Shown: piece after piece, positions 35,821 to 60,220 of the stretch | How positions within the stretch are numbered: position 1 is the stretch's first letter | Layout: each line of letters begins with the position of its first letter | Made by a program: the position numbers and the translations under genes | The notes under the pieces: model-generated | Told to the model about the DNA's origin: nothing | The model's database searches: none | The model's input: only the letters and a program-made list of their open reading frames with translations | Assembly (NCBI GenBank): GCA_964538275.1 | Contig: CAZIFW010000006.1 | Location: 5,826 to 69,825 of the forward strand | Length of the DNA stretch: 64,000 bases | Reading direction: 5' to 3' | DNA from: an uncultured Bacteriovoracaceae bacterium | GTDB lineage: Bacteria > Bdellovibrionota > UBA2428

Positions 35821-36629
35821 TATTTTTTTCTCCCTTTGCTCTTCGCCTTCGAAGGAGCCTTTTCTTTGCTAGGATTTTGACGAACAAACTCACTCTTGCA
35901 ATCGGTGCTGACAAGAGTTCCAATTTTTTTACCTTTTAAGAATTCAGCAATTGAGTTGGGTGTGCGGATGTTCAAGATCTGTATGGGTAATTTGTTATCC
36001 ATACAAAGACTGATAGCCGTACTGTCCATAACTTTTAAATTGCGATTGAGAACATCGATGTAGTTGATGCTTTTGAGCATCTCGGCTTTGGCAAACTTGC
36101 GCGGATCAGAGTCGTAAACTCCATCTACGTTGGTTGCTTTGATTAGAATATCGGCTTCAACTTCCATAGCTCTAAGAGCCGCCGCAGTGTCTGTTGAAAA
36201 GTAGGGGTTACCCGTTCCACTTGCAAAAATAACCACGCGGTTTTTTTCTAAGTGTCGAGTGGCACGACGACGAATGTAGGGTTCTACAACCTGTTCCATT
36301 CGAATCGCGCTTTGAACGCGCGTATCAATGTTGCGACGTTCAAGAGCATCTTGCAGTGCAAGTGCGTTGATACACGTTGCAAGCATTCCCATGTAGTCGC
36401 CGGTTGCGCGATCCATGCCCTTTTCAGAGCCTTGGATTCCGCGGAAAATGTTTCCGCCTCCCACGACAATTGCGATTTGAATGTTCATGGCCAAGACAGA
36501 TTGAATCTGATCGGCCATGAAATCCAATGTGAGCGCATCGAGTCCAAACTCCCGGTTGCCGGCTAAAGCCTCTCCCGAGAGTTTCAACAAGATACGTTTA
36601 TATGTTTTACCTGTTGCTGTGGGTGTCAT
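35820..36629 (-). CDS. pyrH: UMP kinase PyrH, with a ~25-aa Lys-rich C-terminal tail.
   Basis: [14 protein letters not shown]…[10 protein letters not shown]… core. C-terminal tail …[20 protein letters not shown]. Confidence 0.9.
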
Positions 36630-36642
36630 GCTTAACGGCAGT

Positions 36643-37296
36643 CTAGTTCATACCCGCTTGAGCGGCTACTTCGGCTGCAAAATCGTCAACTTTTTTCTCA
36701 AGACCTTCACCGAGTTCCCAACGAACAAAACGGCGAATCTTGATGTTTTCACCAATCTTAGCAATCATTTCTTGTAAAACTGTTTCTACAGTCTTGTCTG
36801 TGTCTTTCAAAAAGCTTTGCTTGAGCAGACAAACTTCGTCGTAATATTTCGACATTTTGCCTTCTACAATCTTCTCAGCAACAGCTTGAGGTTTTCCAGA
36901 CTTGATAGCTTGATCGAGCGCTATTTCTTTTTCTTTTGCTAAAACTTCTGCAGGAACTTCTTCGGGAAGAATGTAAGCAGGTTTGTTTGCTGCAATGTGC
37001 AAGCAAATGTCTTTAACAAAAACTTGGAACAATTCGTTTTGCGCAACGAAGTCAGTTTCAGAGTTTACTTCAAGTAGAACTCCAATTTTTCCGCCCGCAT
37101 GAATGTAAGAGCCGATAGCTCCTTCAGTTGCGATACGGCCCGCTTTTTTAGCAGCAGAAGCCAAACCTTTTTTACGAAGGACGTCTACGGCTTTGTCCAT
37201 GTCACCCGAAGTTTCTTCGAGAGCTTTTTTACAATCCAACATTCCTGCGCCTGTTTTTGTGCGCAGTTCACTTACCATTGATGCTGTAATTGCCAT
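36643..37296 (-). CDS. tsf: Elongation factor Ts.
   Basis: [28 protein letters not shown]… is the EF-Ts N-terminus. The track ORF (to 37341) would run into rpsB; the start at 37296 sits 2 nt below the rpsB stop. Confidence 0.85.
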
Positions 37297-37297
37297 C

Positions 37298-38173
37298 TTA
37301 GTTTTCCTCGTTAGTGCTCTTGATGCTGCGACGTTTTTCAACGTTTACAGTGCGGCCTTCGCGGTCAGTAGTAGATTTCAAGTCATCGCTAGACTTAGAA
37401 ACAGATGGAGTAGGAGCAACAGCAGCCGCTGCTACTGGAGCAGGAGTGCTTTCACGCTTATCAGAGAACGCTCTTACTTTTTCTTCGTGGATACGTGCGC
37501 CATCTAAGAAAGCGTCTGCAACTGCTGAAGCAAACAACTTGATAGATTTAAGAGCGTCATCGTTACCAGGAATTACGAAAGAAACGTCATCTGGATCACA
37601 GTTTGTGTCTGTGATTGCAATGATAGGGATCCCTAATTTCTTAGCTTCTTTAACAGCGTTATGTTCTTTCATAGGGTCGATGATGAAGATCGCTCCGGGA
37701 CGGTCTTTCATAGTGCGAACGCCCCCTAAGTTGCGAACGAGTCTTTCGTGTTCTTTATCAAATGCAGAGCGCTCTTTTGCAGAAAGTTGATCTGCAAGAC
37801 CAGATGCGATCTTGTCGTCGTGCTTTTGAAGAGAATCTAAACACGTTTGAATAGTAGGGAAGTTCGTAAGAGTTCCACCCAACCAACGCTCGTTAACATA
37901 AGGACATCCAGCGCGTTCTGCTTCTTCTTTAACTACGTCTTTGCACTGAGTTTTAGTTCCAACGAAAAGGATTTTTTTACCTTTTGCTGAAAGCTGAGTG
38001 ATGAACGTTAAAGCTTCGCGAGTAAGATGAACGGTTTTTTGCAAGTCGATGATGTAAATGCCGTTTCTGTCGCCGAAGATGTAGGGTTTCATTTTAGGGT
38101 TCCAACGGCTCTTTTGGTGACCGAAGTGTACGCCTGCCTCGAGGAGGTCTTTCATTGTAATTTGAGTTGCCAT
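37298..38173 (-). CDS. rpsB: 30S ribosomal protein S2, with an extended Ala/Pro/Ser/Lys-rich C-terminal tail.
   Basis: MATQITMKDLLEAGVHFGHQKSRWNPKM… is the canonical S2 N-terminus. A ~60-aa low-complexity C-terminal extension follows. Confidence 0.9.
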   Translation of the reverse strand: MATQITMKDLLEAGVHFGHQKSRWNPKMKPYIFGDRNGIYIIDLQKTVHLTREALTFITQLSAKGKKILFVGTKTQCKDVVKEEAERAGCPYVNERWLGGTLTNFPTIQTCLDSLQKHDDKIASGLADQLSAKERSAFDKEHERLVRNLGGVRTMKDRPGAIFIIDPMKEHNAVKEAKKLGIPIIAITDTNCDPDDVSFVIPGNDDALKSIKLFASAVADAFLDGARIHEEKVRAFSDKRESTPAPVAAAAVAPTPSVSKSSDDLKSTTDREGRTVNVEKRRSIKSTNEEN

Positions 38174-38419
38174 TTTTTTTCCTTTTGTCTCTGATACCTA
38201 AGTTCATTTCTGAACGTCAGACTGTGCTTTACAGCAGTGCAGTTTGCTTGGGGCAAATATCCAGAGGTCTAATCTCTACGTCCCGATGATCCGCCGCTGG
38301 GTTTAACTCTTGGGGCCACACACTCGTGCGAGTGGGGGGGCGGGTCCAAGGGCTCGGGTCGTATTCTATAAATATCCCAGCGTGTGTTGTCTGCCAGTAT
38401 TGATAGCCGAGCCCACCGA

Positions 38420-38530
38420 GGGGGTCAAATGAAAGGTGCCTAGCACCTTTTCACACGTTGCACCCCCCCCAAGGCATTTGCGAAATGGTACCTAGTTACT
38501 TTTGGAAGGCACCCGCTACCTTTTGAAGCC
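38420..38530. repeat. Cluster of short palindromic motifs in the rpsB/uvrC divergent intergenic region. It includes a perfect 20-nt hairpin (38432-38451) and a 'ccgctacctttt' motif shared with the 51001-51104 element.
   Basis: aaaggtgcctagcacctttt (38432-38451) is self-complementary. 'aaaggtgcc' and 'ccgctaccttttgaa' recur in the repeat elements at 40291-40346 and 51001-51104. C8 and G7CGGG homopolymer-like tracts flank the region. Confidence 0.45.
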
Positions 38531-38568
38531 TCTTTTACCCAAGAGCTAAAAACCGCTATTCTAGCGAT

Positions 38569-40290
38569 ATGCAGAGGCCTTTATTTGAAGAATTCATAGC
38601 CGCTGCACCCAAAACCCCCGGCTGTTATGTGATGAAGGATGAGGGCGGGACCATCATTTATGTGGGTAAAGCCAAGAACATCCGCAATCGCGTGATGAGT
38701 TATTTTCGCGATAACCTGAGCAGCCCCAAAACTCAGGTTCTGGTTTCTAAGATCAAGGCCATGGAGTTTTTGCAAACCGACACCGAAGTAGAGGCTTTGC
38801 TCTTAGAAAACACTCTCATTAAAAAGCATCGCCCTCGCTATAATATTCGTCTCAAAGACGACAAAACTTACCCCTATATTTGGATCGATACGCGCCACGA
38901 TTTTCCGCGCGCTTATTTTGCCCGCAAGCCTCAGGTGAGTGCGGGGGGCTTGTATTTTGGTCCTTACCCAAGTCCTTTTGCCTTGAGGCAACTTTTACAA
39001 TTGGCATCTAAAGCATTTCTATTGCGTGATTGTCGCGATAGCGAATTTGCCAACCGTTCTCGACCTTGTTTGAGCTATCAAATTGGCCAGTGCACGGCAC
39101 CCTGTGTGCAGTACGTAGACAAAGAAGCCTATCAGCAACAGGTAAATGAGTTTTTGCGTTTTCTTAAGGGCGAAAACGAAATCCTGCGCGATTTGTGGCA
39201 AGAGCAAATGGTCAAATCATCTGAGGCTATGAATTATGAGGATGCGGCTCGCTATCGAGATAGGCTTAAGGCCTTAGAGGATTTGCAAAAAGACCAGCGC
39301 GCGGTGGACCTGAACGACATGAAAAGCCGCGATGTGTGGTGTTACTGGCCCTTTGATTTCTTCACGAATAAGACTGAAGAAAAACAAGATTTTGATTTAT
39401 TACTTTTGCAGTTTCGCGATGGAAAATGGTGGGGGCGCAAGCATTTTCCAATACTCTTAGAAGATACAGAGTTAGATCGAGAAGCTTTTATCAGTTTAAT
39501 TTCTCGTTATTATTTGAAAGCAGATATCCCTTCAGAAGTTGTTGTTCCTACTGACTTTGATACAAACGAAACAAAAGTTTTAAGTGAGCTTCTTCGTATT
39601 GAAAGTGAAGCCCGTCAACATTTGCCCTTTGAGTTTGAAAAAGTTCTAACTGTGCAAACAGGTGATAAGTTATGGAAGATTTGGGATTTGGCTCTTTCGA
39701 ACGCGCGCTCAATGGGTGAGGAGCAAGGAAAAATCAGAGAGCGTCGTCGCGACTCTGTTCAACAGTTGGCAAAACTATTAAAAATTCCAACTCGCTTAGA
39801 GCGCATAGAGTGTTTGGATATTTCAAATTTTCAAGGGGCCGAAAACGTGGCTGCATGTGTGGTTTTTATCAATGGAAAAAAAGCACTGGATGAGTATCGA
39901 AACTTCATCATTAAAAGTGTGCAAGGCCAAGATGACTTTGGAAGTTTGCGCGAAGTTGTAAGACGGCGTTATGGAAAACCCGATAGTCCGCGTCCGGATT
40001 TGTTGATAGTAGATGGGGGCCGAGCACAGCTGGAAAGCGTTCAACTTGCCATGAAAGAAATGGATGTAAATTTTCCTGTGGTGGGATTGGCAAAAGCTCG
40101 CACAGCACGAGATTTTACTTCCTCAGAAGTGGAAGCTAGCTCTGAGCGCTTTTTCTTGCCGGGACAAAAGAATCCCAAAATTATTAAAGAACAATCTGTG
40201 TTGCGCTTAGTGACTGAGATTCGCGACGAAGCCCATCGTTTTGCTATCAGCTTTCACCGCAAACGCCGCGACCAAATCAACGAAGAGTAA
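38569..40290 (+). CDS. uvrC: Excinuclease ABC subunit C.
   Basis: GIY-YIG N-terminus (GCYVMKDEGGTIIYVGKAKNIRNR), a UvrBC-interaction region, and a C-terminal endonuclease/HhH region. Confidence 0.9.
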   Translation: MQRPLFEEFIAAAPKTPGCYVMKDEGGTIIYVGKAKNIRNRVMSYFRDNLSSPKTQVLVSKIKAMEFLQTDTEVEALLLENTLIKKHRPRYNIRLKDDKTYPYIWIDTRHDFPRAYFARKPQVSAGGLYFGPYPSPFALRQLLQLASKAFLLRDCRDSEFANRSRPCLSYQIGQCTAPCVQYVDKEAYQQQVNEFLRFLKGENEILRDLWQEQMVKSSEAMNYEDAARYRDRLKALEDLQKDQRAVDLNDMKSRDVWCYWPFDFFTNKTEEKQDFDLLLLQFRDGKWWGRKHFPILLEDTELDREAFISLISRYYLKADIPSEVVVPTDFDTNETKVLSELLRIESEARQHLPFEFEKVLTVQTGDKLWKIWDLALSNARSMGEEQGKIRERRRDSVQQLAKLLKIPTRLERIECLDISNFQGAENVAACVVFINGKKALDEYRNFIIKSVQGQDDFGSLREVVRRRYGKPDSPRPDLLIVDGGRAQLESVQLAMKEMDVNFPVVGLAKARTARDFTSSEVEASSERFFLPGQKNPKIIKEQSVLRLVTEIRDEAHRFAISFHRKRRDQINEE

Positions 40291-40346
40291 TGTCGAAAAG
40301 GTGCCATAGGGGTGTCGAAAAGGTCTCTGACGCCTAAATGACATTA
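40291..40346. repeat. Copy of an intergenic repeat element ('tgtcgaaaaggtgccaNaggggtgtcgaaaaggtctctgacgcctaaatgaca'), placed directly between the convergent uvrC and 40344..40622 stop codons.
   Basis: A 44/45-nt identity with 51055-51098 is visible. The terminal 'ggtctctgacgcctaaatgaca' also occurs inverted at 51001-51022. Confidence 0.6.
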
Positions 40347-40622
40347 TTGGGGGTCGCGGTCGAATACGTTCGGATTTGGCGCAAACTGTTTGTTGTCATC
40401 TTTGTAGAAGGGATTGTCTTTGCTAACGCGAATTTTTCTGGGGACATTCGCAGAATTTTCTTCTTTGTAAGGTTCTTGATTTTGTTTTTCTTGGAGTGTT
40501 TTTAAATCTGAAGTTGCAACACCGAGTGCAGTGGCTCCGTATTGTTGAGAATTCAGGAGAGACGAAAAGAAAAGGGTAGAAAAAAGACAAAACGCGTAGC
40601 GCATGGCGGCATAATCTAACAC
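40344..40622 (-). CDS. Small hypothetical secreted protein, 92 aa.
   Basis: Signal peptide (MRYAFCLFSTLFFSSLLNSQQ). Pro/Asn/Lys-rich. Confidence 0.35.
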   Translation of the reverse strand: MLDYAAMRYAFCLFSTLFFSSLLNSQQYGATALGVATSDLKTLQEKQNQEPYKEENSANVPRKIRVSKDNPFYKDDNKQFAPNPNVFDRDPQ

Positions 40623-40838
40623 TTATTATTTCAGTTTGGAATATGTGTTGAGTTCAGGTTTCTTTGAACTCGGCTGACACATTTGCAAAGGTTTTTACAG
40701 TTTATTTCTCACAGCTTAGGGAACTTCTTTGCTAGAAACATACTCGGAGGAAATAGAGGGGTATGAAAATGTTAAAGCGCCTAGTCGTGCATTTGTTTTT
40801 AAGAGTTGTTGTTTAGTTTAAAAAACTTACGACACAAA

Positions 40839-41612
40839 TTAGTAATTGTAGCTAACCATACCGAGCACGGTAAAGTAATTGCCGTCTCGGCCAAGTTTAC
40901 CTACAAGAATGTCAGCATCTGGCCAAAAGAGTAAATGATAACGAACATCGAGTCCTAAAAAGACTTTGTTCTTGTAAACATCAAACTCAAAACCACCGCC
41001 CACACTGCAACCAAAAGCTGTGGTGCTTACAACACTACCGGTAGCAAACTTATCCGCTACGCTGGGATCTACTCCCGTTGTGGTGGCCGATCCTTTAACG
41101 CCTTCTGATCGAAACATCATCAATCCGTTGAAGGCAAGGTAGGGGTTCATCAATGAAATTCCGCGAGGAAGGTTGTCGCGATCAAAGGCGTAGCGAACAC
41201 CCAAGCTCACTGGAATCATCACAGTATCCATACTGATATCGATGTTTGCTGTGCTGGTGTTTTGTTCGTTGTAACTTGTTTTGTGAGTGTAGTAACCCAC
41301 TCCCAATTCACCGCCCCACATTTTATCGAAGTAAAATACAAAGCGCAGGCCGAGGTTAAATCCGGCTGAGTTGGCGGCTCCCAGGTCTCCTGTGAATAAA
41401 CCAGTACCCATTAAAAAATTAGTTTGAAAAAATCTTCCAAAGTAGCGGCTTACTTCTTCGTCGAGTTGTACGGGATCACTTTCGAAAGCGCTGTAATCAT
41501 CGTACATGTTGGAGTTAATGCCCACTTGGGCATTTGCGGCAAATGATGCCCCCAAACACATTGTCGCCACAAAAGTCTTTACACAACTGCTTACGTATCT
41601 CCCCAAAACCAT
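40839..41612 (-). CDS. Outer-membrane beta-barrel protein (porin-like).
   Basis: Signal peptide (…LGASFAANA|Q), an amphipathic beta-strand pattern, and a C-terminal …VSYNY terminus. Confidence 0.55.
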   Translation of the reverse strand: MVLGRYVSSCVKTFVATMCLGASFAANAQVGINSNMYDDYSAFESDPVQLDEEVSRYFGRFFQTNFLMGTGLFTGDLGAANSAGFNLGLRFVFYFDKMWGGELGVGYYTHKTSYNEQNTSTANIDISMDTVMIPVSLGVRYAFDRDNLPRGISLMNPYLAFNGLMMFRSEGVKGSATTTGVDPSVADKFATGSVVSTTAFGCSVGGGFEFDVYKNKVFLGLDVRYHLLFWPDADILVGKLGRDGNYFTVLGMVSYNY

Positions 41613-41694
41613 ACATTTAGTATAGCCGTCTTAACGTGGAGACCAAAATTGGGACGCAAATTCCCAAACTCACAGTGTAAAGGCCCAAATTGTC

Positions 41695-42417
41695 GTGATA
41701 GCGTCACTGTTTATGGACAAGGAACTGACACCTTTTCAATCTAACGTATTAGAAATTTTAGAAAATCGCCGTTTTTGGACGATATTGGCAGGAGCTGCCT
41801 TTATTGTACTTGCGGTGGGTTTTGGCCGTTATTACAGCCAACAATCAGCCAAAAAGGCGGAACGAGTAGCTTCTGACAAGCTTTTCGCAATCGAAAAGGT
41901 TGAAGTAGAGGGACTGTCCCCGAGTTCCAGCATTTTCTCTCAAGACTTTATGAAAAAACGCTTGGAATGGGATGATGCAAAAAAAGCCAAGATTAAAGGC
42001 GAGCTGGAATCACTTATTGCTGAATTTCCCAAGACAGCCTCTGCTCAGTCTGCACGCATACGATTGGCTGCAATGTCGTATCAAGATTCAAACTTTGAGC
42101 AAGCCACAAAATACTTTGAAGAAGTTATTTCAAAGGGGACAAAAGATTTAGCAGACATTCCTTATTGGAGTGCAAAATTAGGTTTAGCTTATTTGTTGGA
42201 AACACAAAAAAAATATGACGAAGCGATTACACATTACAAAGATGTGGCTTCTGATGTTAAAAACCCACTGGCAGCTGAAGCGATGTTGTCACAAGTGAGA
42301 TCTTTAAAAGCAAGCGGCAAGCTTACTGAGATTGCTCCCATCATTGAAAAAATTAAAACTGAATTCGCGGGCACTTATTATGAATCCGCTGCACGCGCTT
42401 ACGAAAGCGCTCGGTAG
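41695..42417 (+). CDS. YfgM-like membrane-anchored TPR protein (ancillary SecYEG translocon subunit family).
   Basis: A single N-terminal TM helix (FWTILAGAAFIVLAVGFGRYY), then a TPR-like helical domain. Its position immediately upstream of bamB mirrors the yfgM–bamB synteny. Confidence 0.55.
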   Translation: MIASLFMDKELTPFQSNVLEILENRRFWTILAGAAFIVLAVGFGRYYSQQSAKKAERVASDKLFAIEKVEVEGLSPSSSIFSQDFMKKRLEWDDAKKAKIKGELESLIAEFPKTASAQSARIRLAAMSYQDSNFEQATKYFEEVISKGTKDLADIPYWSAKLGLAYLLETQKKYDEAITHYKDVASDVKNPLAAEAMLSQVRSLKASGKLTEIAPIIEKIKTEFAGTYYESAARAYESAR

Positions 42418-42426
42418 GTTATACGC

Positions 42427-43569
42427 ATGAAGTTGTTCTTATATGCAACTGCGCTATTAGCTGTATCGTGCACAACACTTCCTAAGGGCGCGTTGGATAC
42501 TTCGCGCTTTACAGGCATTGGCATGGTTGAGATTGAGCGCGATCCAAAGTTTGAGCGAGGTCCAGCTTTGGGTTCTTTTGCTTATCCCATTAAATTCAGT
42601 GATACCGATTATTTTGTAGGAACCTTAGGTGGTTCTTTTGGTCGTTTTCACACTCCAAGTGGAAGTTTTAAATGGAAAAAAACTTTTCGTGTGGGTGTAG
42701 CTTCGCGTCCAGCGATTAGAGGAAACCGAGTTTATATCAGCGCAATGGACGGTTTTGTATATGCCTACGATTTACAAAATGGTCGTCAAATTTGGAAAAA
42801 GAAACTGAGTGCAGAATCTCTTGGTAACTTGGTGATGGGAGAAGATTATCTCTACGTAGCTAGTTCGGATAATATTCTTTGGGCACTGAATGTTCAGACG
42901 GGCGATGAGCAATGGACTTTACGTCGTCCTTCTCCAAATGCTTCTTACTTTTGGTCCTTGCGTGGTAACACTGCGGGCGTATTGAGTGCTAACAAACAAA
43001 TTTTGTACCTAGGTTTTTCAGACGGCGTTGTAGTTGCTCTTAGAGCAAACAGCGGAGAAGTTATTTGGGAGCGAAGTTTTACGCGTCCAGGTCGCTTTCA
43101 AGATGCAGATACAGAACCTGTTTTATCTCCCGATGGCTCTACGCTTTACATAGCACTTCCAGATCATACGGTGCAGGTGCTTAGAACATCGGATGGTTCT
43201 TCTACAGATAGTTATCCGGATGCCTCTGGTTTTGTTCCCTATGTGAACTTCAAAGAAGGCACCATGATTTACACCACGCCAAACGGAACTGTTCGTAAGT
43301 ATCAGCTTTCTACTAAGAAGTTGCTGTGGGAGCTCAGTCTTAAGAAAAGTGGCATTGGTGTTGAGTTCTTTGATCTTAATAATGGTGAACTGTTGATGAC
43401 CTCAACTCACTTTGGACTTCATTTGATTGATTCTAAAACAGGTAAAATGTTGGGCGAGCATTATTTGGGCGAAGGCACATTGGCGCGTCCTATATCGGAT
43501 GGGTCGCGTGTTTTTGTAATGACGGGTCGTGGTCGTTTAGCGTTCTTAAAGATTAACAAAAAGATTTAG
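42427..43569 (+). CDS. bamB: Outer-membrane protein assembly factor BamB (PQQ-like beta-propeller lipoprotein).
   Basis: Lipobox LAVSC|TT. Repeated 'G.VYa.d..tG..lW' beta-propeller blades (…GFVYAYDLQNGRQIWKK…, …ILWALNVQTGDEQW…, …GVVVALRANSGEVIWER…). Confidence 0.75.
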   Translation: MKLFLYATALLAVSCTTLPKGALDTSRFTGIGMVEIERDPKFERGPALGSFAYPIKFSDTDYFVGTLGGSFGRFHTPSGSFKWKKTFRVGVASRPAIRGNRVYISAMDGFVYAYDLQNGRQIWKKKLSAESLGNLVMGEDYLYVASSDNILWALNVQTGDEQWTLRRPSPNASYFWSLRGNTAGVLSANKQILYLGFSDGVVVALRANSGEVIWERSFTRPGRFQDADTEPVLSPDGSTLYIALPDHTVQVLRTSDGSSTDSYPDASGFVPYVNFKEGTMIYTTPNGTVRKYQLSTKKLLWELSLKKSGIGVEFFDLNNGELLMTSTHFGLHLIDSKTGKMLGEHYLGEGTLARPISDGSRVFVMTGRGRLAFLKINKKI

Positions 43570-43578
43570 GACTTTCTT

Positions 43579-44049
43579 ATGAATAAACTTTTTTCACTCG
43601 TTGCTTTAACTTTAGTTTTTGTTGCGCCCGTTCAGGCTGAGAGCGATTACGATTCTATTCGCAGTTGTTTAAATGCTTGGGGTACTCACCCATTCCCTAA
43701 AGACAAAAGCCGTGCGGATAAAGTACTCAGTCCAAGTGTGAAGGTTTTGGGAATTGGTGGCCGAGACATTGAAGATGCAAACGTCACTGAAAAAGCTTCT
43801 CTTGTTTTAATTAAACCGAGCGTGAATGTGTTGAGCAAATCTACTTTTAGACTTACAAACCCCAAAGGTTGGTACTGTCTCAAAGGTACGGTTGCTGTAC
43901 TTGGTAAAGCTGAATTCATACTTCATTGCAAAGCTAAGATGGCCACAAATAATGGAGATGTAGCAGTGCTCGGCAAAAACGAAAATCAAGAGGGCGGCGT
44001 AGCAGTTCTTGGGTCTATTCGCGTAAAAACAATCGGCGACTGTAACTAG
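43579..44049 (+). CDS. Hypothetical secreted protein, 156 aa, with internal VAVLGK repeats.
   Basis: Signal peptide (…FVAPVQA|ES). GTVAVLGKAEF, GDVAVLGKNEN and GGVAVLGSIRV repeats. Confidence 0.4.
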   Translation: MNKLFSLVALTLVFVAPVQAESDYDSIRSCLNAWGTHPFPKDKSRADKVLSPSVKVLGIGGRDIEDANVTEKASLVLIKPSVNVLSKSTFRLTNPKGWYCLKGTVAVLGKAEFILHCKAKMATNNGDVAVLGKNENQEGGVAVLGSIRVKTIGDCN

Positions 44050-44070
44050 CTTTTTTGTATAGAGCGTAGC

Positions 44071-44189
44071 GCCTTGGCGAGTGAGCAAAACTTTTTAGAT
44101 CACTAAAGGGGGCATGGCCCCCTCTCTTAAGTGCTTTGCACTTAATTCACTCCCTATTGATCTAAAAAGTTTTGCTCACACGCCAAGGC
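44071..44189. repeat. 119-nt element with 32-bp near-perfect terminal inverted repeats (31/32) enclosing two small hairpins. Candidate MITE-like element, structured RNA or terminator.
   Basis: Left arm gccttggcgagtgagcaaaactttttagatca (44071-44102). Right arm tgatctaaaaagttttgctcacacgccaaggc (44158-44189). Internal gggggcatggccccc and aagtgctttgcactt palindromes. Followed by cttttgcccttt. Confidence 0.6.
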
Positions 44190-44275
44190 TTTTGCCCTTT
44201 CCAAATTGCTTTGGATTTTTACTTTGGAGAAGAAAATTGCTTACTGTAGCGGATGATGGGTTTTTCCCTTAAACT

Positions 44276-45301
44276 ATGATCATGATTGAGAGTGGCACGG
44301 GATGGGCCGGGAAACTTCAGGATCGTCCTTCATTTATACTCTCTTGGGGTAAAAGCAAAGAAAACCCATCTCTCTTTTACGATCTAGCATCTCTGACAAA
44401 AGTTATAGTCACGGGTTCTCTACTTTTAGAGCTTTGTATGGAGCTCAAAAAAACTATCGAAGAATTCAAAGAACTCACACTCGATACTTTTTTGCCTCAA
44501 TCATCTGTATCGCTCTCTAAGCTCAAAGTGGGCGAAGTATGGGAGCATCGTGCCGGATTAAAATCACACTTTTTACTTGATCCCCTAAAGTCAAGAAATG
44601 CATTTTCCGGAACTCGCGCACAATTATGGACGTATGTTTTAGATCAAATTTCACAGCAAGGAATGAGTTCTAACAAAGACTGCGTATACTCTGATTTAGA
44701 CTTTTGGGTACTCGGTGCGCTTTTAGAAACACATTATAAAAAAGATCTTAAAGAACTTTGGCAGGATTACAAAAAAAAGTATTCATTGCCTTCAAATGAT
44801 CTCGTCTATGGTCCGATCATGGAAGATGTTGTCGCAACTGAGACTCGTCACCCTATAGGGATAGTGAACGACGACAATGCTTGTTTTATGCAAGGCATTG
44901 CGCCCCACGCAGGTTTGTTTGCAACAGTCGAAGCTGTTTGGGAATGGATGCTTTTGATGCAATTCCACTATGATAAAAACCCAGCTCTTCAGAGTTTTTT
45001 TGTGCCTCAAGGCGATAATCGTTTTTGGTGTGGATGGGATCGTCCAAGTGAAGAACTTAGCCAAGCGGGCGAGGGGGCTCCTCGCGAGGAAGTGCTGGGG
45101 CATCTTGGATATACGGGAACAGCGCTTTGGTGGGATCCGGTCACACGTTGGGGTGGAGTATTGTTAACCAATAGAGTTTATCCCTCTCATACAGAGGCGA
45201 GTAGAGAAGAAGTTAAAGCCCTTCGAATTAAGTTTTTTAGTTTGTTGTGGCATTCAAACAAAGACGAACTTTGGGCAGCCCTTCAGCAAGAGATAACTTA
45301 G
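44276..45301 (+). CDS. Beta-lactamase-family serine hydrolase (class C / esterase-like).
   Basis: S-x-x-K active-site motif LASLTKV near the N-terminus, a Y-x-N-like motif (VYSDLDF), and overall PBP/beta-lactamase-like length. Confidence 0.6.
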   Translation: MIMIESGTGWAGKLQDRPSFILSWGKSKENPSLFYDLASLTKVIVTGSLLLELCMELKKTIEEFKELTLDTFLPQSSVSLSKLKVGEVWEHRAGLKSHFLLDPLKSRNAFSGTRAQLWTYVLDQISQQGMSSNKDCVYSDLDFWVLGALLETHYKKDLKELWQDYKKKYSLPSNDLVYGPIMEDVVATETRHPIGIVNDDNACFMQGIAPHAGLFATVEAVWEWMLLMQFHYDKNPALQSFFVPQGDNRFWCGWDRPSEELSQAGEGAPREEVLGHLGYTGTALWWDPVTRWGGVLLTNRVYPSHTEASREEVKALRIKFFSLLWHSNKDELWAALQQEIT

Positions 45302-45691
45302 TTATTTTTTTCTTCTTAGTTTTATAGAACCATCAGGACGTTGATTTTTAGATTTGAAGCGCTCAGAAGTGATGCCATTTTTTTTGGGGTTTTTTAAATG
45401 ACCCCTTTCGTGGGCGCGCTGACGCCACCTCAAAAAAGATGAACTCTTGAGCTGCATGCGCATAAAAATCACAACATCATCGGGTTTGAGTCCAAATTGT
45501 TTTTCTATCAATTCAAAAGGAGTACGGTCTTCTAGAGCCATACTGATAATACGGTCGTAGTCTGATTCGGGAATGCGAGCGATACGATCTTTTCTGTTCA
45601 CATCATTCACATAAACAAAAATAGAGACATTCTTCGAATAGGATTTAACTCGCTTTAAATCCCCATTGAAGGAAAAAGAGAACACATGCAC
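45302..45691 (-). CDS. DUF2805 (TIGR03643-like) small conserved protein with a Lys/Arg-rich C-terminal tail.
   Basis: DYDRIISMALEDRTPFELIEKQFGLKPDDVVIFMRMQLKSSSFLRWRQRAHERG matches the DUF2805 core (…riiemAWeDRTPFeaIe.qFGl.e..Vi.lMR.el.pssFr.WR.Rv…). Confidence 0.55.
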   Translation of the reverse strand: MHVFSFSFNGDLKRVKSYSKNVSIFVYVNDVNRKDRIARIPESDYDRIISMALEDRTPFELIEKQFGLKPDDVVIFMRMQLKSSSFLRWRQRAHERGHLKNPKKNGITSERFKSKNQRPDGSIKLRRKK

Positions 45692-45701
45692 TCTGTGATC
45701 T

Positions 45702-46394
45702 ATGCAAGAAGCAACGAAGTGGGTTACTCGCCAGAGGTGGGAACATGTTCAATTTTTACACTTCACTGGGGCTGCCGAAGTGGTTCGGTCAGTGCTTCCG
45801 AAAGAGCTCGAGCTTGATTGTTGGCAAAATGAAGCTGTTCTCTCTGTTGTTCCGTTTCGAATGACTCGCGTGCGATTTCCTGGAGTTCCATCAATTCCAG
45901 TTTTATCTAATCTTTGGGAACTCAATTTACGAACGTATGTTAAGTATAAAAGTCAGAGAGGGGTTTATTTTTTTACACTTGAAAGCAGCAATCCTTTGGC
46001 GACATGGGTGGCGCGTACTTTTTTTTCACTTCCCTATGCAAATTCAAAACTCCAAGTGAATAAGGCTCATCAAGATAACTTTCACACAATTCATAGAAGA
46101 GGAAATCTGAGTTGTGAAATTGTATGCGACTTGAAGAGCGGCGTTGAGTTTATAAAAAATGACTTTTCGGATTGGGCGACCGAACGCTATTGTCTTTTTA
46201 ATGTGAAAAAAAATAAGGTTTATAGGGGAACAGTCTTTCATAATCCTTGGAAGTTAAACGCTTTAGAGGTGAAAAAGTTTGAAGGAAACTTTCTTTCATT
46301 AGTGCCAAATGCGGATAGTTTCAAACTGTATGCATCCAGCTATTGTCGTTTGATTGACGTAAGTTTTAAAGCCTTTGAAATCATGGGTACTTAA
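45702..46394 (+). CDS. DUF2071 (COG3361) family protein.
   Basis: WEHVQFLHFTGAAEVVRSVLPKELELD…AVLSVVPFRMTRVRFPGVP…ELNLRTYVKY…GVYFFTLESSNPLATWVARTFFSLPYANSKL follows the DUF2071 consensus as recalled from memory. Confidence 0.55.
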   Translation: MQEATKWVTRQRWEHVQFLHFTGAAEVVRSVLPKELELDCWQNEAVLSVVPFRMTRVRFPGVPSIPVLSNLWELNLRTYVKYKSQRGVYFFTLESSNPLATWVARTFFSLPYANSKLQVNKAHQDNFHTIHRRGNLSCEIVCDLKSGVEFIKNDFSDWATERYCLFNVKKNKVYRGTVFHNPWKLNALEVKKFEGNFLSLVPNADSFKLYASSYCRLIDVSFKAFEIMGT

Positions 46395-46474
46395 ACCTGA
46401 TTGAACTGCAAAATGGCGAGCTATTTTGGAGCTTTTTTGCTTTAGTCTTAACTTAAAATTGACGATAAGTAAGG

Positions 46475-48106
46475 GTGCTTGGCTTCTCCTTTTTTATCTT
46501 AGAAAAGAAAGTTTTTTTTCTTAGATACTTCATATTTATAGCGGGATCTTTCTTGTTTTCGCTTCAGACTAACGCTGTGATTTGCAGACATGCTTTGGGA
46601 GTAGAAGGATCCGAAAACGGCGGAGCTTCTAATCCTACAAGCAAAGCTACAACCTCTAGGCCCGATGATTTAAAAACAGCAGTGAATCCTTATGGTGATG
46701 GTTTCGTGCGAGAAGCCCATGAGACTGAGCGCGAAGGGCAGCTATACAATGTAAATGAAAATTTTAATTCCAAAGTTGATGAAAAAGGCAATCCTAGAAA
46801 AGACGGGCGCTACTTATTTGTAGTCGCGCGAGATATCGATGGAGTTCGTCGCATCATGGTTGTTCCACGCTTTGATTTTGATAGAGCCGATGGAAAATTT
46901 TTGAGCACACATCGCTCTATGTTTAGAAAATATCGCGACGTTTTTGGTCCCACTCCCTCTATTGAAGTTATGGGAGAAATTGAAATTAATGCGGGAACTG
47001 TGGTGTCTTACAATAATAAAGCGGGTACGGGTTATGATCCCAAAGAGGCCGAAGACCCTCATTTGTTTGAACAAAGAAAAGCTATTGCTGAGTCTATGGG
47101 AATTGATTTGTCTAAAGCTGATCGAGTTGTGAATTATACTCCCATAGCTATTGAGGCCGAAAAAAATAAAGAAAAAGCCCGAATCCCAGGGAGGCACATT
47201 GAAGAAGAAGAATTTGTTGTGAGAATGAAATTGCTCTACGAGCAGCCCATCTTACGCGAAATGATTCAGAAGCAAGATAATTTAGTTCAGCGAGCCTATG
47301 CGCTCTTTCCTCAAAATATAGAAAAAAATCCCAAGCGTATTTTTAATTTCAAAGAAGAGCCCCTTTTATCCTTAGGCATTCCACTCTTGGAGCAAGGGAA
47401 TTTAGAAATGACTACAAGTCTCTCCCAGGATCATGGAGCGGGAACAATGATGGCAAATATGCTAATTAACAATAACTCGGGAGCTTTACCATTTGCTAAG
47501 TACTTAGATAATTTTGAAAAACTTGTCCTTTATTTAGAGGCTAAAAAAGACGGTAAGACTTTAAGCGTACCCGATTGGACCAAAGATCAAAGTGATCTTC
47601 CTTCTCGATATTTAGCTCAGCATGCTCAAAGCGGCGAAAAAACTGTAAATGACACCAGACAAAAAATCTTAATGGCAGAAGGTCGACCGGATCCTTTGGA
47701 ACCAGAAAAGAATTTAAAAATCCTTAATTGGTCGCTTACTCCAGGTGAAAAGCATTACTTAACTTCTGATGAAAAAAGAAATGAGATTATAAATGCGCAA
47801 CTACTTTTAGAAGAATTGCGTGAACGCTTTGGTATTACTAAAGATCGCGGTGGACCTTTTGATTACAAAAAGTTTTCAGAAACTATGCGTTTTGATGAAG
47901 ATAATGGATTTACAGAAGACCACATAGCGAACAAAATGATTTACGATTTACTCATGGAAAGTGAGCGCTCCGGGGGGCAACCCCTTAAACTGTACGATGA
48001 AATGTCTAAATCAGCTGAAGCTGCTCCAGAAGACGACATGTATATGAATCCTCTTCCCTCTACTGTGGTAGGTGCTTATCTGAGGATCTTAGGTATTCGG
48101 CCTTAG
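46475..48106 (+). CDS. Hypothetical secreted protein, 543 aa.
   Basis: Signal-like N-terminus (…KKVFFLRYFIFIAGSFLFSLQTNA|V). No recognisable catalytic motifs. AT-rich gene. Confidence 0.5.
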   Translation: MLGFSFFILEKKVFFLRYFIFIAGSFLFSLQTNAVICRHALGVEGSENGGASNPTSKATTSRPDDLKTAVNPYGDGFVREAHETEREGQLYNVNENFNSKVDEKGNPRKDGRYLFVVARDIDGVRRIMVVPRFDFDRADGKFLSTHRSMFRKYRDVFGPTPSIEVMGEIEINAGTVVSYNNKAGTGYDPKEAEDPHLFEQRKAIAESMGIDLSKADRVVNYTPIAIEAEKNKEKARIPGRHIEEEEFVVRMKLLYEQPILREMIQKQDNLVQRAYALFPQNIEKNPKRIFNFKEEPLLSLGIPLLEQGNLEMTTSLSQDHGAGTMMANMLINNNSGALPFAKYLDNFEKLVLYLEAKKDGKTLSVPDWTKDQSDLPSRYLAQHAQSGEKTVNDTRQKILMAEGRPDPLEPEKNLKILNWSLTPGEKHYLTSDEKRNEIINAQLLLEELRERFGITKDRGGPFDYKKFSETMRFDEDNGFTEDHIANKMIYDLLMESERSGGQPLKLYDEMSKSAEAAPEDDMYMNPLPSTVVGAYLRILGIRP

Positions 48107-48205
48107 TCTGGCATCTTAACAAAAGCCTCCAAGCTTCATTCAGTAAAGAAAATGAGTCGAAAAAACGTCGCTTTAGGATAAAGTTTTTCCTACATATCTG
48201 GCACA

Positions 48206-49738
48206 ATGAAAGTAGAGATAAAAGCCATGGAAAGCGCTAAAACAACACAACAAACGATAAATCAGCATTGGGTTCACTTCGTTGCAATTGGGGGCACGGG
48301 AATGGGCGCACTCGCAAGTTTATTTAAATCTCTGGGGGCCAAAGTGACTGGAAGTGATGGCCCAATCTATCCTCCCATGAGTTTATTTTTAGAAGCTCAA
48401 AAAATCCCACTCGCGCAAAGCTACGGTGAAGAGAATTTACAAGGATCAAGGTGGGGGTTTTCAGAGGCACATCCGAGTATTGTCATAATTGGAAATGCGA
48501 TTTCAAAAACCAATTTAGAAGCTCAAGCTGTAGAAAAGCTTGCTGCTCAAAGTAAATTACGCCGAATGAGCTTTCCTGAAGCCATTGGTGAATTCATGAT
48601 TCAAAAACGCACAAGTCTTGTGGTTGCGGGCACTCACGGAAAAACAACAACAACTTCTTTGCTAGCGTGGGCATGCGAAGTTTTAGGAAATGACCCAGGC
48701 TTTTTTATTGGTGGAATACCTAAAAACTTTGAAAGTGGCTCTCGAATGGGTACGGGAGTTTTTGCTAGCGAAGGTGATGAATACGATACCGCTTATTGGG
48801 ATAAGGGGTCTAAATTTTTACACTACAGACCAACATGGGTTTTAGGAACGGGCATTGAATTTGATCATGCGGATATTTATACATCTGTGGAGCAAATTGA
48901 AGAAAGTTTTTTAAAACTGGTGCCACTCACGGCAGAAGGCTGGCTTTTGATTGATCGTGTATCGGCACCTAAAGTTTCTAGCGTTGAGAAAATTGAAAAT
49001 GCCCTCAAAAAAATTGGCAAAAAATGTTTTCGCTACGGCGAAGATCCGGACTCCCCCTTCTCGTTGATGGGTTGGGAGCGTTGTCCGCTTCCATGGAATG
49101 AGCGTTCTTTTGGATTAAAGTTTCAAGTCAGTATTCATGGAGAAAAACACACTTTTGTAAGCCCCATGGTGGGCCGTCATAACTTATTAAATGCTTTAGG
49201 TGTAATGGGTGTGTTGCATTCCGCGGGTGTTTTAAAAAAGATTTCTGATTTTCAAGAAGTTTTACAAACATTCAAAGGCGTTACGCGTAGACAAGATATC
49301 TTACTTGAAAGTGAAAATTTTATCTTGATGGATGATTTTGCTCATCATCCAACAGCTATTAAAGAAACAATACAAGCAGTCAAGGAACGCTTTCCTCAGT
49401 ATTCTCTTGCTGCTTTTTTTGAGCCGCGTTCTGCAACTTCAGCTCGCAATACAATGTATGCAGATTTTGTAAAATCTTTTTCTGCAGCCGATGCAGTGTT
49501 TATTCAAGAAGCTACAAAAGTAAATGTTCCTGAGGCCGAACGTTTAAAAGTTCACGATCTTGTAAGAGAAGTTATTGGACGTGGTAATACAGAGTTTGCA
49601 AGCAGTAAAAAAACGATTGAAGAACTCGCTGCTGAATTTATAAATTGGAAAAGTAAAAAAGAAAAAGTTCTAGCTTTGGTTATGTCGAATGGAGCTTTTT
49701 CGGGCTTAAATAAAAAATTACTCGAGTTGGTCAAATAG
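48206..49738 (+). CDS. mpl: UDP-N-acetylmuramate:L-alanyl-gamma-D-glutamyl-meso-diaminopimelate ligase (murein peptide ligase Mpl).
   Basis: HFVAIGGTGMGALA…VTGSD, GTHGKTTTTSLLA and DEYDTAYWDKGSKFLHYRP. The C-terminal VMSNGAFSGLNKKLLELV closely parallels E. coli Mpl (…DEYDCAFFDKRSKFVHYCP…, …MSNGGFGGIHQKLL…). It is isolated from the dcw cluster, which also argues for Mpl rather than MurC. Confidence 0.8.
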   Translation: MKVEIKAMESAKTTQQTINQHWVHFVAIGGTGMGALASLFKSLGAKVTGSDGPIYPPMSLFLEAQKIPLAQSYGEENLQGSRWGFSEAHPSIVIIGNAISKTNLEAQAVEKLAAQSKLRRMSFPEAIGEFMIQKRTSLVVAGTHGKTTTTSLLAWACEVLGNDPGFFIGGIPKNFESGSRMGTGVFASEGDEYDTAYWDKGSKFLHYRPTWVLGTGIEFDHADIYTSVEQIEESFLKLVPLTAEGWLLIDRVSAPKVSSVEKIENALKKIGKKCFRYGEDPDSPFSLMGWERCPLPWNERSFGLKFQVSIHGEKHTFVSPMVGRHNLLNALGVMGVLHSAGVLKKISDFQEVLQTFKGVTRRQDILLESENFILMDDFAHHPTAIKETIQAVKERFPQYSLAAFFEPRSATSARNTMYADFVKSFSAADAVFIQEATKVNVPEAERLKVHDLVREVIGRGNTEFASSKKTIEELAAEFINWKSKKEKVLALVMSNGAFSGLNKKLLELVK

Positions 49739-49746
49739 GGGGCTAA

Positions 49747-50580
49747 TTGAAAAAATTTCGAGCGTCTGAACTTTCTGGACAAGGTACGCTTGAATATATT
49801 TTATTAACTGCTCTTGTTGTTGGCATTGTAATGACAGCTTTCAACGGACCCTTGCGTCGCTTTCTTGCAACCTATCAATCGCGCCAAACTGAATACACAA
49901 ATGTTATGACCCAAAGAAACATGGGTATACCTATGGGATGGTTTGGTGGAAATTATGCCAACCCTGGCGGTGGACCGGGAGCTACTGGAGGCGCAACTGC
50001 TGGTGCTGATCCTGGAGCTGACCCAGCTGATACTCCACCCCCCACGGGTGCAGGAGAGGTTACTCCTCCTGCAGTAGCAGGCACAAATGGCCAAGCTGGA
50101 GATGGTGCAAATCCACCTGAAGGACCAACAGGATATGCAGGTCCTGGTGGCGCAGGAGCAGGCCCGAATAACTCACTTTTAAGTCCGTCAGACACCCGAA
50201 CAGCTGCAAATACACGCGGAGGCAGAGGGGGGCGAACGACTGCGGGTGAAGGAGATGAAGAAGGTACACAAGAGGGTGGCTCTACTGCAAGAACAGGCGG
50301 CTTGCCTGCAAACAGAGCGGGCTCTGGTTCTATAGAAGATGAAGATGAGCAGGCACCTCCAAATGAAACAGAAGAAGAAAAACAAGCACGCGTTCGCCGA
50401 GCAGAAGAGGGCGAAACTTTAAAGCAAGCAGAGGGCTTGTATGGGCCAACTACGCGACGTGTTCGCGAGGGCTCCTGTGGGGATTTGGATTTAAAGGTTA
50501 TCTTGCAAATTGCATTTGTAATTGGTCTTTTCTTTTTGTTGGCAAGTATGCTTTTTCAAAAACGTGGGCGTGGCGATTAA
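49747..50580 (+). CDS. Flp-pilin-like N-terminus fused to a ~200-aa Gly/Pro/Ala/Thr-rich disordered region and a C-terminal TM helix. TTG start in the ORF track.
   Basis: N-terminal …ELSGQG|TLEYILLTALVVGIVMTAF resembles the Flp/Tad prepilin G/xxxxEY motif. The core GGGPGATGGATAGADPGADPADTPPPTGAGE… is low complexity. The C-terminal segment VILQIAFVIGLFFLLASMLF is hydrophobic. It starts 8 nt after the mpl stop. Confidence 0.5.
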   Translation: MKKFRASELSGQGTLEYILLTALVVGIVMTAFNGPLRRFLATYQSRQTEYTNVMTQRNMGIPMGWFGGNYANPGGGPGATGGATAGADPGADPADTPPPTGAGEVTPPAVAGTNGQAGDGANPPEGPTGYAGPGGAGAGPNNSLLSPSDTRTAANTRGGRGGRTTAGEGDEEGTQEGGSTARTGGLPANRAGSGSIEDEDEQAPPNETEEEKQARVRRAEEGETLKQAEGLYGPTTRRVREGSCGDLDLKVILQIAFVIGLFFLLASMLFQKRGRGD

Positions 50581-50634
50581 CTGTCGTTACTATAAGCATG
50601 AAACATTCTAAAATTTAGCTCAGAGGAGTATAAC

Positions 50635-50994
50635 GTGAAAAAAATATTAGCATTGTTATTTGTTTTATCTGGGACTTCACTTGCAATTGCAGAAGAGGGT
50701 GGACCTAAAGGAAAGAATTTTGAAGAAGCCAAGGCTCACGCTTTAAAGATGCTTGATGCAAGAACAAAGGCGCTTCAGGAAGCAAAGACTTGTATAAGTG
50801 CGGCTAAATCACATGACGATTTAAAAAAATGTCATGAAACTATGAAAGAACATCGTAAAGAATTTAAAGAGTCTCGCCAAGAGTTTCGAGAAGAGCGCAA
50901 AGAAAAGCGTGAAGAGTGGAAAAACAAACGCAAGGAATGGAAAGAAAGTCGTGGAAAAGACGCCCCTCCTCCTCCACCTGAAGGCGAAGAATAA
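50635..50994 (+). CDS. Small secreted charged-helix protein (KEKREE / REE repeats), periplasmic Spy/CpxP-like in composition.
   Basis: Signal peptide (MKKILALLFVLSGTSLAIA|EE). Two Cys, then …KEHRKEFKESRQEFREERKEKREEWKNKRKEWKESRGKDAPPPPPEGEE. Confidence 0.5.
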   Translation: MKKILALLFVLSGTSLAIAEEGGPKGKNFEEAKAHALKMLDARTKALQEAKTCISAAKSHDDLKKCHETMKEHRKEFKESRQEFREERKEKREEWKNKRKEWKESRGKDAPPPPPEGEE

Positions 50995-51000
50995 TATAAA

Positions 51001-51104
51001 TGTCATTTAGGCGTCAGAGACCTTTTTGACCACCCTCCGCTACCTTTTTAACAATGTCGAAAAGGTGCCAGAGGGGTGTCGAAAAGGTCTCTGACGCCTT
51101 TTTT
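51001..51104. terminator. Long imperfect palindrome (22-bp stem with one G·U, ~45-nt loop) followed by a T-tract. Probable intrinsic terminator between convergent genes, and a member of the same repeat family as 40291-40346.
   Basis: Left arm aggcgtcagagacctttttgac (51009-51030) pairs with right arm gtcgaaaaggtctctgacgcct (51077-51098). Followed by tttttgctttt. The loop contains ccgctacctttttaa and tgtcgaaaaggtgcca motifs. Confidence 0.6.
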
Positions 51105-51108
51105 GCTT

Positions 51109-51873
51109 TTAAGCTAAATGAATTTTCTTTGCGCTAATATCGAGCGCCCAAAAACAAATATCTTCAGGGCTTTTAGAGGTTTTTTCATTCTTCTCAAAAT
51201 TAAATAAGAAAGAGTTAAAGTCATCTTTGAGTTCTTCTGAGAGAGGATTGAGATCAATTTGTTGTAATAGCTTTTGATTGCTTTCTTTATTAAGAAAAAA
51301 CAAACGGCTACCAGGAGCAATTTGCATAGATTTTCTTTTTTCAGCTTCAATCACCTCAGGGGGTGTCCACTGTCGACGTTCAAAATTACGAGTAAAAAGC
51401 AAAGGAGCAACCCCGTGAGTGGCTTCTTCCCATTTCAAAGTAGAAATATGTAGGTTTGCTATAAAAATGCGAGCCTTTGGATCTTCGGCAGGCGAAAACT
51501 CAGAAAGTATATTTTCAAGTGCTAGAGCGGGGGTGCTCTCTGCCTTATCAAAAAAAGTTCTCCCTTGCAGAAGTAAATAGGTTTGAAAGAGTGATGTGCT
51601 CAAACCATAAGAGTGAACGCTGAAGTAAAAAAGCCAAAGATTGGTTTTTTTACTGTTAAGGAAAAAGTCAAAACCCTCTGCACGGTTTTGTTCGCCGGGT
51701 ATGTAGCGGCTTAAGAACTCAATGCCTTGAACTTGAGGAAATCTATTTTGTGTTACGAGTCCCTGAATTTGTTTGGCAATTTTTTCAGTGATACTAAGCT
51801 CTTTTTGTAAGCTTAAAAGTTTGCTCTCTAAAATCTTAAGGCGTTGTTCTACTTCGTCGGAATCAAAACTCAT
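51109..51873 (-). CDS. Degenerate SpoIIE/PP2C-like phosphatase-fold protein (possible pseudo-phosphatase) with an N-terminal coiled coil.
   Basis: GFDFFLNSKKTNLWLFYFSVHSYGLSTSLFQ aligns with PP2C/SpoIIE 'GDyfD…l.igDVSGHGv.Aal'. ATHGVAPLLFTR aligns with AGHppPLl.r. IAPGSRLFFLNKE aligns with l.pGD.lllyTDG. EDICFWALDI aligns with DDiTllvl. The metal-binding Asp of DVSGHG is replaced (SVHSYG). Overlaps the rsmB stop by 4 nt. Confidence 0.4.
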   Translation of the reverse strand: MSFDSDEVEQRLKILESKLLSLQKELSITEKIAKQIQGLVTQNRFPQVQGIEFLSRYIPGEQNRAEGFDFFLNSKKTNLWLFYFSVHSYGLSTSLFQTYLLLQGRTFFDKAESTPALALENILSEFSPAEDPKARIFIANLHISTLKWEEATHGVAPLLFTRNFERRQWTPPEVIEAEKRKSMQIAPGSRLFFLNKESNQKLLQQIDLNPLSEELKDDFNSFLFNFEKNEKTSKSPEDICFWALDISAKKIHLA

Positions 51874-53036: not shown

Positions 53037-53042
53037 GCTTTT

Positions 53043-53384: not shown

Positions 53385-53407
53385 GAGATTTATTCTAACA
53401 TGTTCTC

Positions 53408-53944: not shown

Positions 53945-54007
53945 ATCTGTTATCTTAGCAGGCTAAGTCTCTTCACTTAAGCATCTTTCTTAAAAACTAG
54001 TTTATCT

Positions 54008-60132: not shown

Positions 60133-60220
60133 ATCATTTAGAAAATGACTCGCAATGAATCACATCTTCAATAGAAAACAGTCTATTGAACAGAAGTGGT
60201 GGGCTCTAAAAAAGAGCTCG

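Follow-up and report, generated by a model that had tools for sequence, protein, structure and literature searches.

A lineage-specific 119-nt inverted repeat with concerted arm evolution between two Bdellovibrionota genes, a candidate long-stem terminator

A ~199-nt insert separates two same-strand genes in an uncultured Bacteriovoracaceae bacterium, and at its core lies a 119-nt inverted repeat (44071-44189) that folds into the strongest RNA hairpin of the window, that is, of the whole 64-kb stretch of DNA analyzed. A second species carries the element at this very locus, and between the two species its arms have changed in step. We read it as a long-stem intrinsic terminator or 3′-end hairpin that would uncouple the gene for a 156-aa protein from a downstream hydrolase gene, with arms evolving in concert, and on the sequence comparisons set out below we give this reading about an even chance of being right.

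Inverted-repeat detection and RNA folding place the left arm of the long stem at 44071-44105 and the right arm at 44155-44189, both on the + strand. The 32-nt arm described in the earlier note indeed matches the opposite strand with a single mismatch, where shuffled sequences give an expectation of 0 matches, and the full inverted repeat is somewhat longer, with arms of 35 nt in which 33 of 35 positions pair (94% complementary) and 49 nt between them. The 119-nt RNA is predicted to fold into a long stem around two small hairpins that meet in a three-way junction. Both of these internal hairpins had been proposed from the sequence and both appear in the fold, the first (44107-44123, + strand, core GGGGGCATGGCCCCC) with a G+C-rich stem of 6-7 bp and a 3-nt loop, and the second (44127-44145, + strand, core AAGTGCTTTGCACTT) with an 8-bp stem and a TTT loop. 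The fold reaches -71.2 kcal/mol (z = -13.9), and none of 200 dinucleotide shuffles was as good. When the entire 64-kb window was scanned for folds in 120-nt steps of a sliding frame, the element ranked first of ~4,260 frames (z -8.2), followed by the hairpin near 51001 (z -6.5), all others going no further than about -4. The fifth most stable 120-nt fold, at 60151-60270 of the window (-46.8 kcal/mol, z -3.8), consists of two adjacent hairpins, one of them a 17-bp stem around CTAAAAAAG.

The base of the long stem is G+C-rich (GCCUUGGCG/CGCCAAGGC) and is directly followed on its 3′ side by UUUU, encoded by a TTTT that abuts the stem at 44190-44193 and continues into GCCCTTTCC; this is the U-rich stretch reported previously. 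The tract is confined to the + strand, the minus-strand continuation past the element (GCUACGCUCUAUAC) having none, which agrees with the direction of both flanking genes. These genes, at 43579-44049 (+) and 44276-45301 (+), lie on the same strand as originally described, and the element starts 21 nt past the TAG stop (44047-44049) of the upstream one. The upstream gene encodes the 156-aa protein, for which a Pfam search matched no family. Its description as a small secreted protein holds, as the N terminus, read directly from the sequence, is a typical Sec signal peptide (MNKLFSLVALTLVFVAPVQA followed by E). The protein has 55 homologues, one of them named as a Bdellovibrionota MAG protein, and is conserved in Bdellovibrionota. 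The downstream gene encodes a beta-lactamase-family serine hydrolase (PF00144), whose conserved start, judging from the aligned relatives, is probably the ATG at 44282. The row formed by a TPR_21 protein, a BamB-like protein, the 156-aa protein and the PF00144 hydrolase is kept in all relatives fetched. Beyond the hydrolase gene, a DUF2805 gene (-) and a DUF2071 gene (+) lie before a 543-aa gene (45302-46394 in the window and 1141-2233 in contig L040); this pair is found only in the window species, with L034, L035 and L039 lacking it, and represents a second indel in this small region.

Comparison of the spacers delimits the inserted DNA. Between the 156-aa and hydrolase genes, the spacer measures 226 nt in the window (44050-44275) and only 24-60 nt in eight related lineages, all of which lack the element (33 nt in L034, 30 nt in L035, 34 nt in L036, 24 nt in L037, 30 nt in L041, 27 nt in L042-L045, and 60 nt, with no hairpin, in L046). 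In L034, whose protein is 91% identical to that of the window, the entire short spacer aligns with the left flank of the element (44050-44070) and homology returns at TAAACT, so that the window has ~199 extra bases at 44071-44269 (+ strand, boundaries +/-3 nt). On the left, this insert begins exactly where the left arm has its outer end; on the right, it extends 80 nt past the right arm.

Cluster look-ups returned only three lineages close to the window at this locus. In the SRR29353002 lineage, a 40.9-kb contig (L038) stops 52 nt past the 156-aa gene, ending in TAGC GCCTTGGCAACTCAGCAGAGTTTTTTAGAT, and a second contig (L039) begins 123 nt before the hydrolase gene with ATCTAAAAAACTCTGCTGAGTTGCCAAGGC TTTTGCCCTTTCC; together they carry the same element at the same locus as the window. 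Their arms are perfectly complementary over all 30 nt read, and the contig ends imply a further match, to at least 31 nt, an arrangement that a k-mer assembler could not cross. This second carrier species shares ~78-82% coding DNA identity with the window. The window species, L034 and L038/L039 are in fact about equally distant from one another (78-85% coding nucleotide identity), and a neighbor-joining tree of 3.1 kb, ((window, L034), L038) with 84.5% bootstrap, is close to a trichotomy, with 43 supporting sites against 35 and 29 for the alternatives. By this comparison the element is older than the split of at least two species, and either L034 lost it or the locus departed from the species tree.

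The changes between the two versions of the element are fully compensated. The window and L038/L039 arms differ at 6 of 30 positions (9, 11, 13, 18, 20 and 21), or 20%, and all six differences are matched on the other arm, none of the 30 pairs having changed on one side only. When the register was slid by 1-3 columns as a control, 0-2 double changes were counted, compared to six in the true register. Watson-Crick pairs fill 59 of the 60 pair cells and G-U pairs none, with no broken pair in L038/L039 and one (A-A) in the window, and the outer eight and inner nine positions of the stem are invariant between both species. The comparative sample consists of two element versions, the L038/L039 loop having been lost at the contig break, and this support therefore pertains to the stem and not to the internal hairpins. 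An orthologous, compensated element in a second species indicates that a near-perfect stem has been maintained and is not recent. The earlier suggestion that such a long and well-conserved stem betrays recent mobility does not stand, given that the element occupies the same locus in a species only ~78-82% identical, with arms that are a fifth diverged yet still paired.

Conservation extends past the stem. A first block (44187-44215, + strand, GGCTTTTGCCCTTTCCAAATTGCTTTGG) is 100% identical in the pairwise alignment of the two carriers, window and L039, and the next 25 nt are only ~60% identical. The GGC of the stem base and the TTTT tract belong to it, as do GCCCTTTCC and a weak hairpin, TCCAAA-TTGC-TTTGGA (44200-44215), and TTTTT comes next (44216-44220). 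Taken by itself, this weak hairpin does not reach significance (-4.6 kcal/mol, z -0.1). A second block (CTGTAGCGGATGATGGGTTTTTCCCTTAAACT, 44244-44275, + strand), identical at 30 of 32 positions in the same alignment, ends in the TAAACT box, 6 nt before the conserved ATG of the hydrolase gene, and may be the promoter region of that gene. The arrangement TAARCT-N6-ATG was found in all relatives (L034-L037, L039, L041 and L046, the last with TAGACT), which suggests that the hydrolase gene carries a start signal of its own, with the insert as new upstream sequence. In each of these lineages, as in the window (44270-44284 from the box through the ATG at 44282), the distance is exactly 6 nt and no Shine-Dalgarno sequence accompanies it, as would suit a -10 box from which a leaderless mRNA is transcribed. 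On the other side of the element, no conserved promoter was visible, the left flank differing between species.

Two further readings of the insert were rejected. A small open reading frame (44114-44272, 52 aa) starts inside hairpin 1, and a 1-nt indel between species breaks its frame; GCGGATGA, a stretch of the conserved block inspected by eye as a sigma-28-like promoter, was dropped because it has no convincing -35 element. General signal scans of 36000-55000 of the window counted 14 sigma-70-like promoter matches, which is fewer than the 29.5 +/- 5.9 in shuffles, and 21 simple terminator-like sites, not enriched over the 20.1 expected. Scans for E. coli-type signals thus seem uninformative for the window organism.

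According to the reading we favor, a long-stem terminator, ~199 nt of non-coding DNA with the inverted repeat as its core would have entered a former 24-60-nt spacer in a small Bdellovibrionota clade. The + strand transcript would then form a 31-35-bp stem whose G+C-rich base is followed by UUUU, and this hairpin would act both as an intrinsic terminator and as 3′-end protection for the mRNA of the 156-aa gene. The hydrolase gene would be uncoupled, its expression then depending on sequences within the conserved right-hand portion of the insert, and any read-through transcripts would contain a long perfect double-stranded stem of the kind cut by RNase III. One arm would have been copied repeatedly from the other at the DNA level, by template switching at quasi-palindromes, with selection on the hairpin possibly adding to the effect.

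Several features argue for termination: the element is the strongest fold in the window, TTTT abuts the stem on the sense strand only, and the whole lies 21 nt after a stop codon. A G+C-rich stem base abutting a U-tract on the transcribed strand, just past a stop, is what Rho-independent terminators display, including long-stem and bidirectional ones, and this combination is conserved in both carriers. However, the element departs from a compact terminator hairpin (stem of ~5-14 bp, loop of 3-8 nt) in its 31-35-bp stem and its 49-nt branched loop holding two hairpins, and a consensus terminator scan did not call it. The U-tract is short, with 4 U followed by GCCC, which also speaks against termination, as does the chance-level count of simple terminator-like sites given above. 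Unlike the usual Rho-independent terminator, moreover, it is newly inserted into an otherwise tightly spaced gene row.

The second-ranking hairpin of the window provides a useful comparison. This hairpin (51009-51099, -61.5 kcal/mol, T6 after it) lies between 50635-50994 (+) and 51109-51873 (-), and the same site was located in three relatives (12098-12188 in L034, 5725-5820 in L039 and 10395-10445 in L035). The more distant L035 has a plain textbook bidirectional terminator at this position, while L034 and L039 have elaborated versions, that of L039 being rearranged with a different apex hairpin. Since the 51009 hairpin replaces a classical terminator of a relative, oversized terminator hairpins do occur in this lineage. 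Between the window and L034, a 15-nt shell of the hairpin with three mismatches is exactly exchanged between the arms, while the 33-nt core keeps its orientation; this exchange looks like the footprint of a nested inversion or of template switching.

The two elements had been described as unrelated in sequence but alike in context. The first part holds, as 241 of 2000 shuffles score as well as the alignment of the arms, and membership of the 44071 element in a 51009 family was rejected, a local alignment being no better than shuffles. The shared context survives only loosely, the 51001 hairpin lying between convergent genes and being part of a dispersed repeat. A 47-nt copy of that repeat, 98% identical to 51053-51099, begins at the uvrC stop, again between convergent genes (40289-40345 in the window, 2740-2771 in L034 and 1-29 in L001). 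In L034, the 33-nt segment on the uvrC side (bounded by ATGTC and GACAT) has the opposite orientation and lacks a 22-nt unit containing TGTCGAAAAGGT; L038 lacks the uvrC-side segment entirely, and L034 has two occurrences of the outer arm of the 51009 hairpin. From these sequences, the 51009-type repeat is possibly a REP- or MITE-like family acting as terminators.

The question of why the arms stay paired bears directly on the function of the element. As reported in PMC8794818, PMC5941160 and PMC8604942, template switching creates stems and maintains or repairs them, gives multi-base compensatory changes, homogenizes arms and inverts spacers. The dominance of Watson-Crick pairs, in 59 of 60 cells and with no G-U, points to a DNA-level symmetry rather than to RNA-only selection, and the clade offers precedents for exchange at the DNA level in the 15-nt shell swap of the 51009 hairpin and the 33-nt inversion after uvrC. 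The arms may be kept complementary by arm copying in replication, by selection, or by both, and, judging from the pattern of changes, the maintained pairing most likely comes mainly from arm-to-arm copying. The invariant outer eight and inner nine stem positions, together with the conserved tail, suggest an additional functional constraint. Near-perfect arms, multi-base compensated differences with no G-U intermediates, and arm swaps and spacer inversions in neighboring hairpins of the clade are all shared with described template-switch hairpins (Monttinen and Loytynoja 2022, PMC8794818; Lavi et al. 2018, PMC5941160). What those studies describe, however, are short inverted repeats and stems within genes, those for rRNA among them, whereas the stem here is exceptionally long and the mechanism would be deduced from two sequences only.

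Carried to its end, this argument yields a rather unlikely alternative, in which the element is a neutral palindrome, made and kept perfect purely by template switching and tolerated in a non-essential spacer with no RNA or DNA function. Pure DNA-level homogenization could hold the arms together with no function at all, and the literature (PMC8794818; PMC5941160; PMC8604942) backs template switching as a mechanism. The entirely Watson-Crick complementarity with no G-U fits, as do the perfection of the L038/L039 arms over at least 31 nt, which explains the contig break, the swapped arms and short inverted segments seen in further hairpins of this clade, and the apparently harmless loss of the element in L034. 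Neutrality accounts less well for the invariance of the outer eight and inner nine stem positions and of the 29-nt block after the stem next to a neighboring spacer that is ~40% diverged, which suggests a constraint on sequence as well as on pairing. The U-tract also stands exactly where a terminator needs one, and on the sense strand only. A related scenario, which we consider doubtful, is that the 44071 element and the 51009-type hairpins would be self-homogenizing palindromes, long hairpins both created and kept perfect by template switching in replication, which came to serve as new terminators and so divided an ancestral operon.

An unlikely origin, of about the same standing as the scenario just described, is a MITE-like non-autonomous transposon with 32-35-bp terminal repeats that landed in the spacer and has since become fixed or lost its mobility, an influence on termination being incidental. 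In size and architecture, the element does resemble Correia, ERIC and RUP-type elements. It is moreover present in the window species and L038/L039 and absent from L034, L035, L036, L037, L041, L042-L045 and L046; this polymorphism at orthologous sites, with L034 lacking the element while grouping with the window and L038 having it, is one point in favor of an origin by insertion, as is the fact that the inserted DNA starts right at the outer limit of the left arm. On the right, however, the insert runs on for 80 nt beyond the repeat, which is thus not terminal there, and no target-site duplication was found at the arm ends or insert ends in comparison to the empty sites of L034, L035, L036, L037 and L041, sites at most ~80% identical in which a very short duplication could be hidden. 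Furthermore, ends bound by a transposase would be expected to hold their sequence, whereas these arms are 20% diverged with full compensation.

Copy number, in the sequences covered here, also speaks against a transposon. Neither the 64-kb window nor ~90 kb of related loci held a further copy (32-nt arm with 3 mismatches; BLAST of the element), leaving a single locus in these sequences, although a low number of copies may lie elsewhere in the source genome. The 19-nt arm core was scanned against 596 Gb of 185,579 species genomes, 241 M metagenome records and viral contigs, giving 7, 20 and 3 matches, respectively; each was an isolated match of 19-23 nt in an unrelated taxon, lacked a partner arm and was dismissed as chance. 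A degenerate arm pattern, built from positions common to both species, had 0 matches in viral contigs, blastn of the full 226-nt spacer (44050-44275) returned nothing from plasmid or phage collections, and no insertion sequence with matching sequence was found by exact-word search or BLAST with the element itself as query. In a k=31 assembly graph, identical copies elsewhere would break contigs within ~30 nt; metagenome contigs continue unbranched for 75 nt and 52 nt past the edge of the element, which, assuming k=31, argues against such copies in those genomes. The earlier note had held that a single copy with no transcript end and no flanking duplication would leave an over-engineered terminator. 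Its checks for extra copies, for a target-site duplication and for an Rfam family all came out negative, and by that measure the over-engineered terminator or a structured RNA is what is left.

Known families of small mobile repeats lead to the same comparison. Correia/NEMIS elements of Neisseria, ERIC/IRU of enterobacteria and RUP of Streptococcus pneumoniae are likewise ~120 nt long, intergenic, with long inverted ends, present or absent among relatives and co-transcribed with flanking genes, as the 44071 element would be from its position, and their transcripts form a hairpin that may be a substrate of RNase III or may stabilize mRNA. In contrast, these families count tens to hundreds of copies with defined target duplications, while the present element has one locus in the sequences covered, no duplication, repeats that do not bound the inserted DNA, and arms that covary between species. 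REP doublets (REPINs/BIMEs, mobilized by RAYT transposases) are similar in forming a long intergenic hairpin from two inverted units, often at gene ends, but they are highly repeated and each unit is a small G+C-rich palindrome. The REP/REPIN assignment was rejected, the element occupying a single locus in the window and related loci and its arm having no internal G+C-rich palindrome; the dispersed 51009-type repeat appears to be the better REPIN-like candidate. An integron attC site (RYYYAAC ... GTTRRRY) was likewise rejected, the ends here being GCCTTGG...CCAAGGC in a syntenic gene row and not a cassette array, and retron and invertible-switch readings were rejected on sequence and context.

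It is distinctly unlikely that the element is a stand-alone structured RNA, either a 3′-UTR-derived small RNA ending at the U-rich tail or an attenuator of the hydrolase gene with alternative inner hairpins. The three-way junction with its U-rich 3′ tail and the conserved block directly after the stem would suit such an RNA. Against it, Rfam gave 0 matches at the gathering level in the whole window, and no conserved promoter is visible upstream. At relaxed thresholds, miRNA-precursor models and a plastid 3′-UTR hairpin reached 32-38 bits, compared to gathering scores of 51.5-90 (79-90 for the miRNA-precursor models), and these are generic long-hairpin matches. A perfect stem of 31-35 bp is also atypical of trans-acting bacterial small RNAs.

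All short-read metagenome assemblies carrying the element break within it. In SRR29353002, both contigs stop after exactly 30 nt of their arm, which is what a k=31 graph should give for a perfect repeat no shorter than 31 nt. Window-species contigs from four metagenomes end at 44145 (L001) or start at 44137 and 44138 (L002 and L003) and at 44162 (L040), so that they break at varying points, within the loop or the right arm and away from the junctions of arm and loop, which suggests coverage loss at a strong hairpin as the simpler cause. A DNA-level site such as a cruciform or a protein-binding or recombination site, for example an invertible switch flipping the 49-nt center, would suit a long, nearly perfect inverted repeat in which contigs from four samples break, but is very improbable, as the differing break points fit coverage loss better than two orientations, no recombinase gene lies nearby, and covarying arms are unlike a protein operator.

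The practical value of these results is limited to one locus in one small clade of uncultured or poorly studied Bdellovibrionota. The covariation observed here, six double changes in a long stem with no G-U, is of a kind that can arise by DNA-level arm copying, which cautions against taking compensatory changes as proof of RNA function. If the self-homogenizing scenario were true, template switching would have left direct footprints in the exact exchanges of arm segments and the small inversions that distinguish sister species. If instead the long-stem terminator reading is right, a single ~200-nt insertion would have split a packed gene row into separate transcription units, bringing at once a stop signal for the 156-aa gene and new upstream sequence for the next gene.
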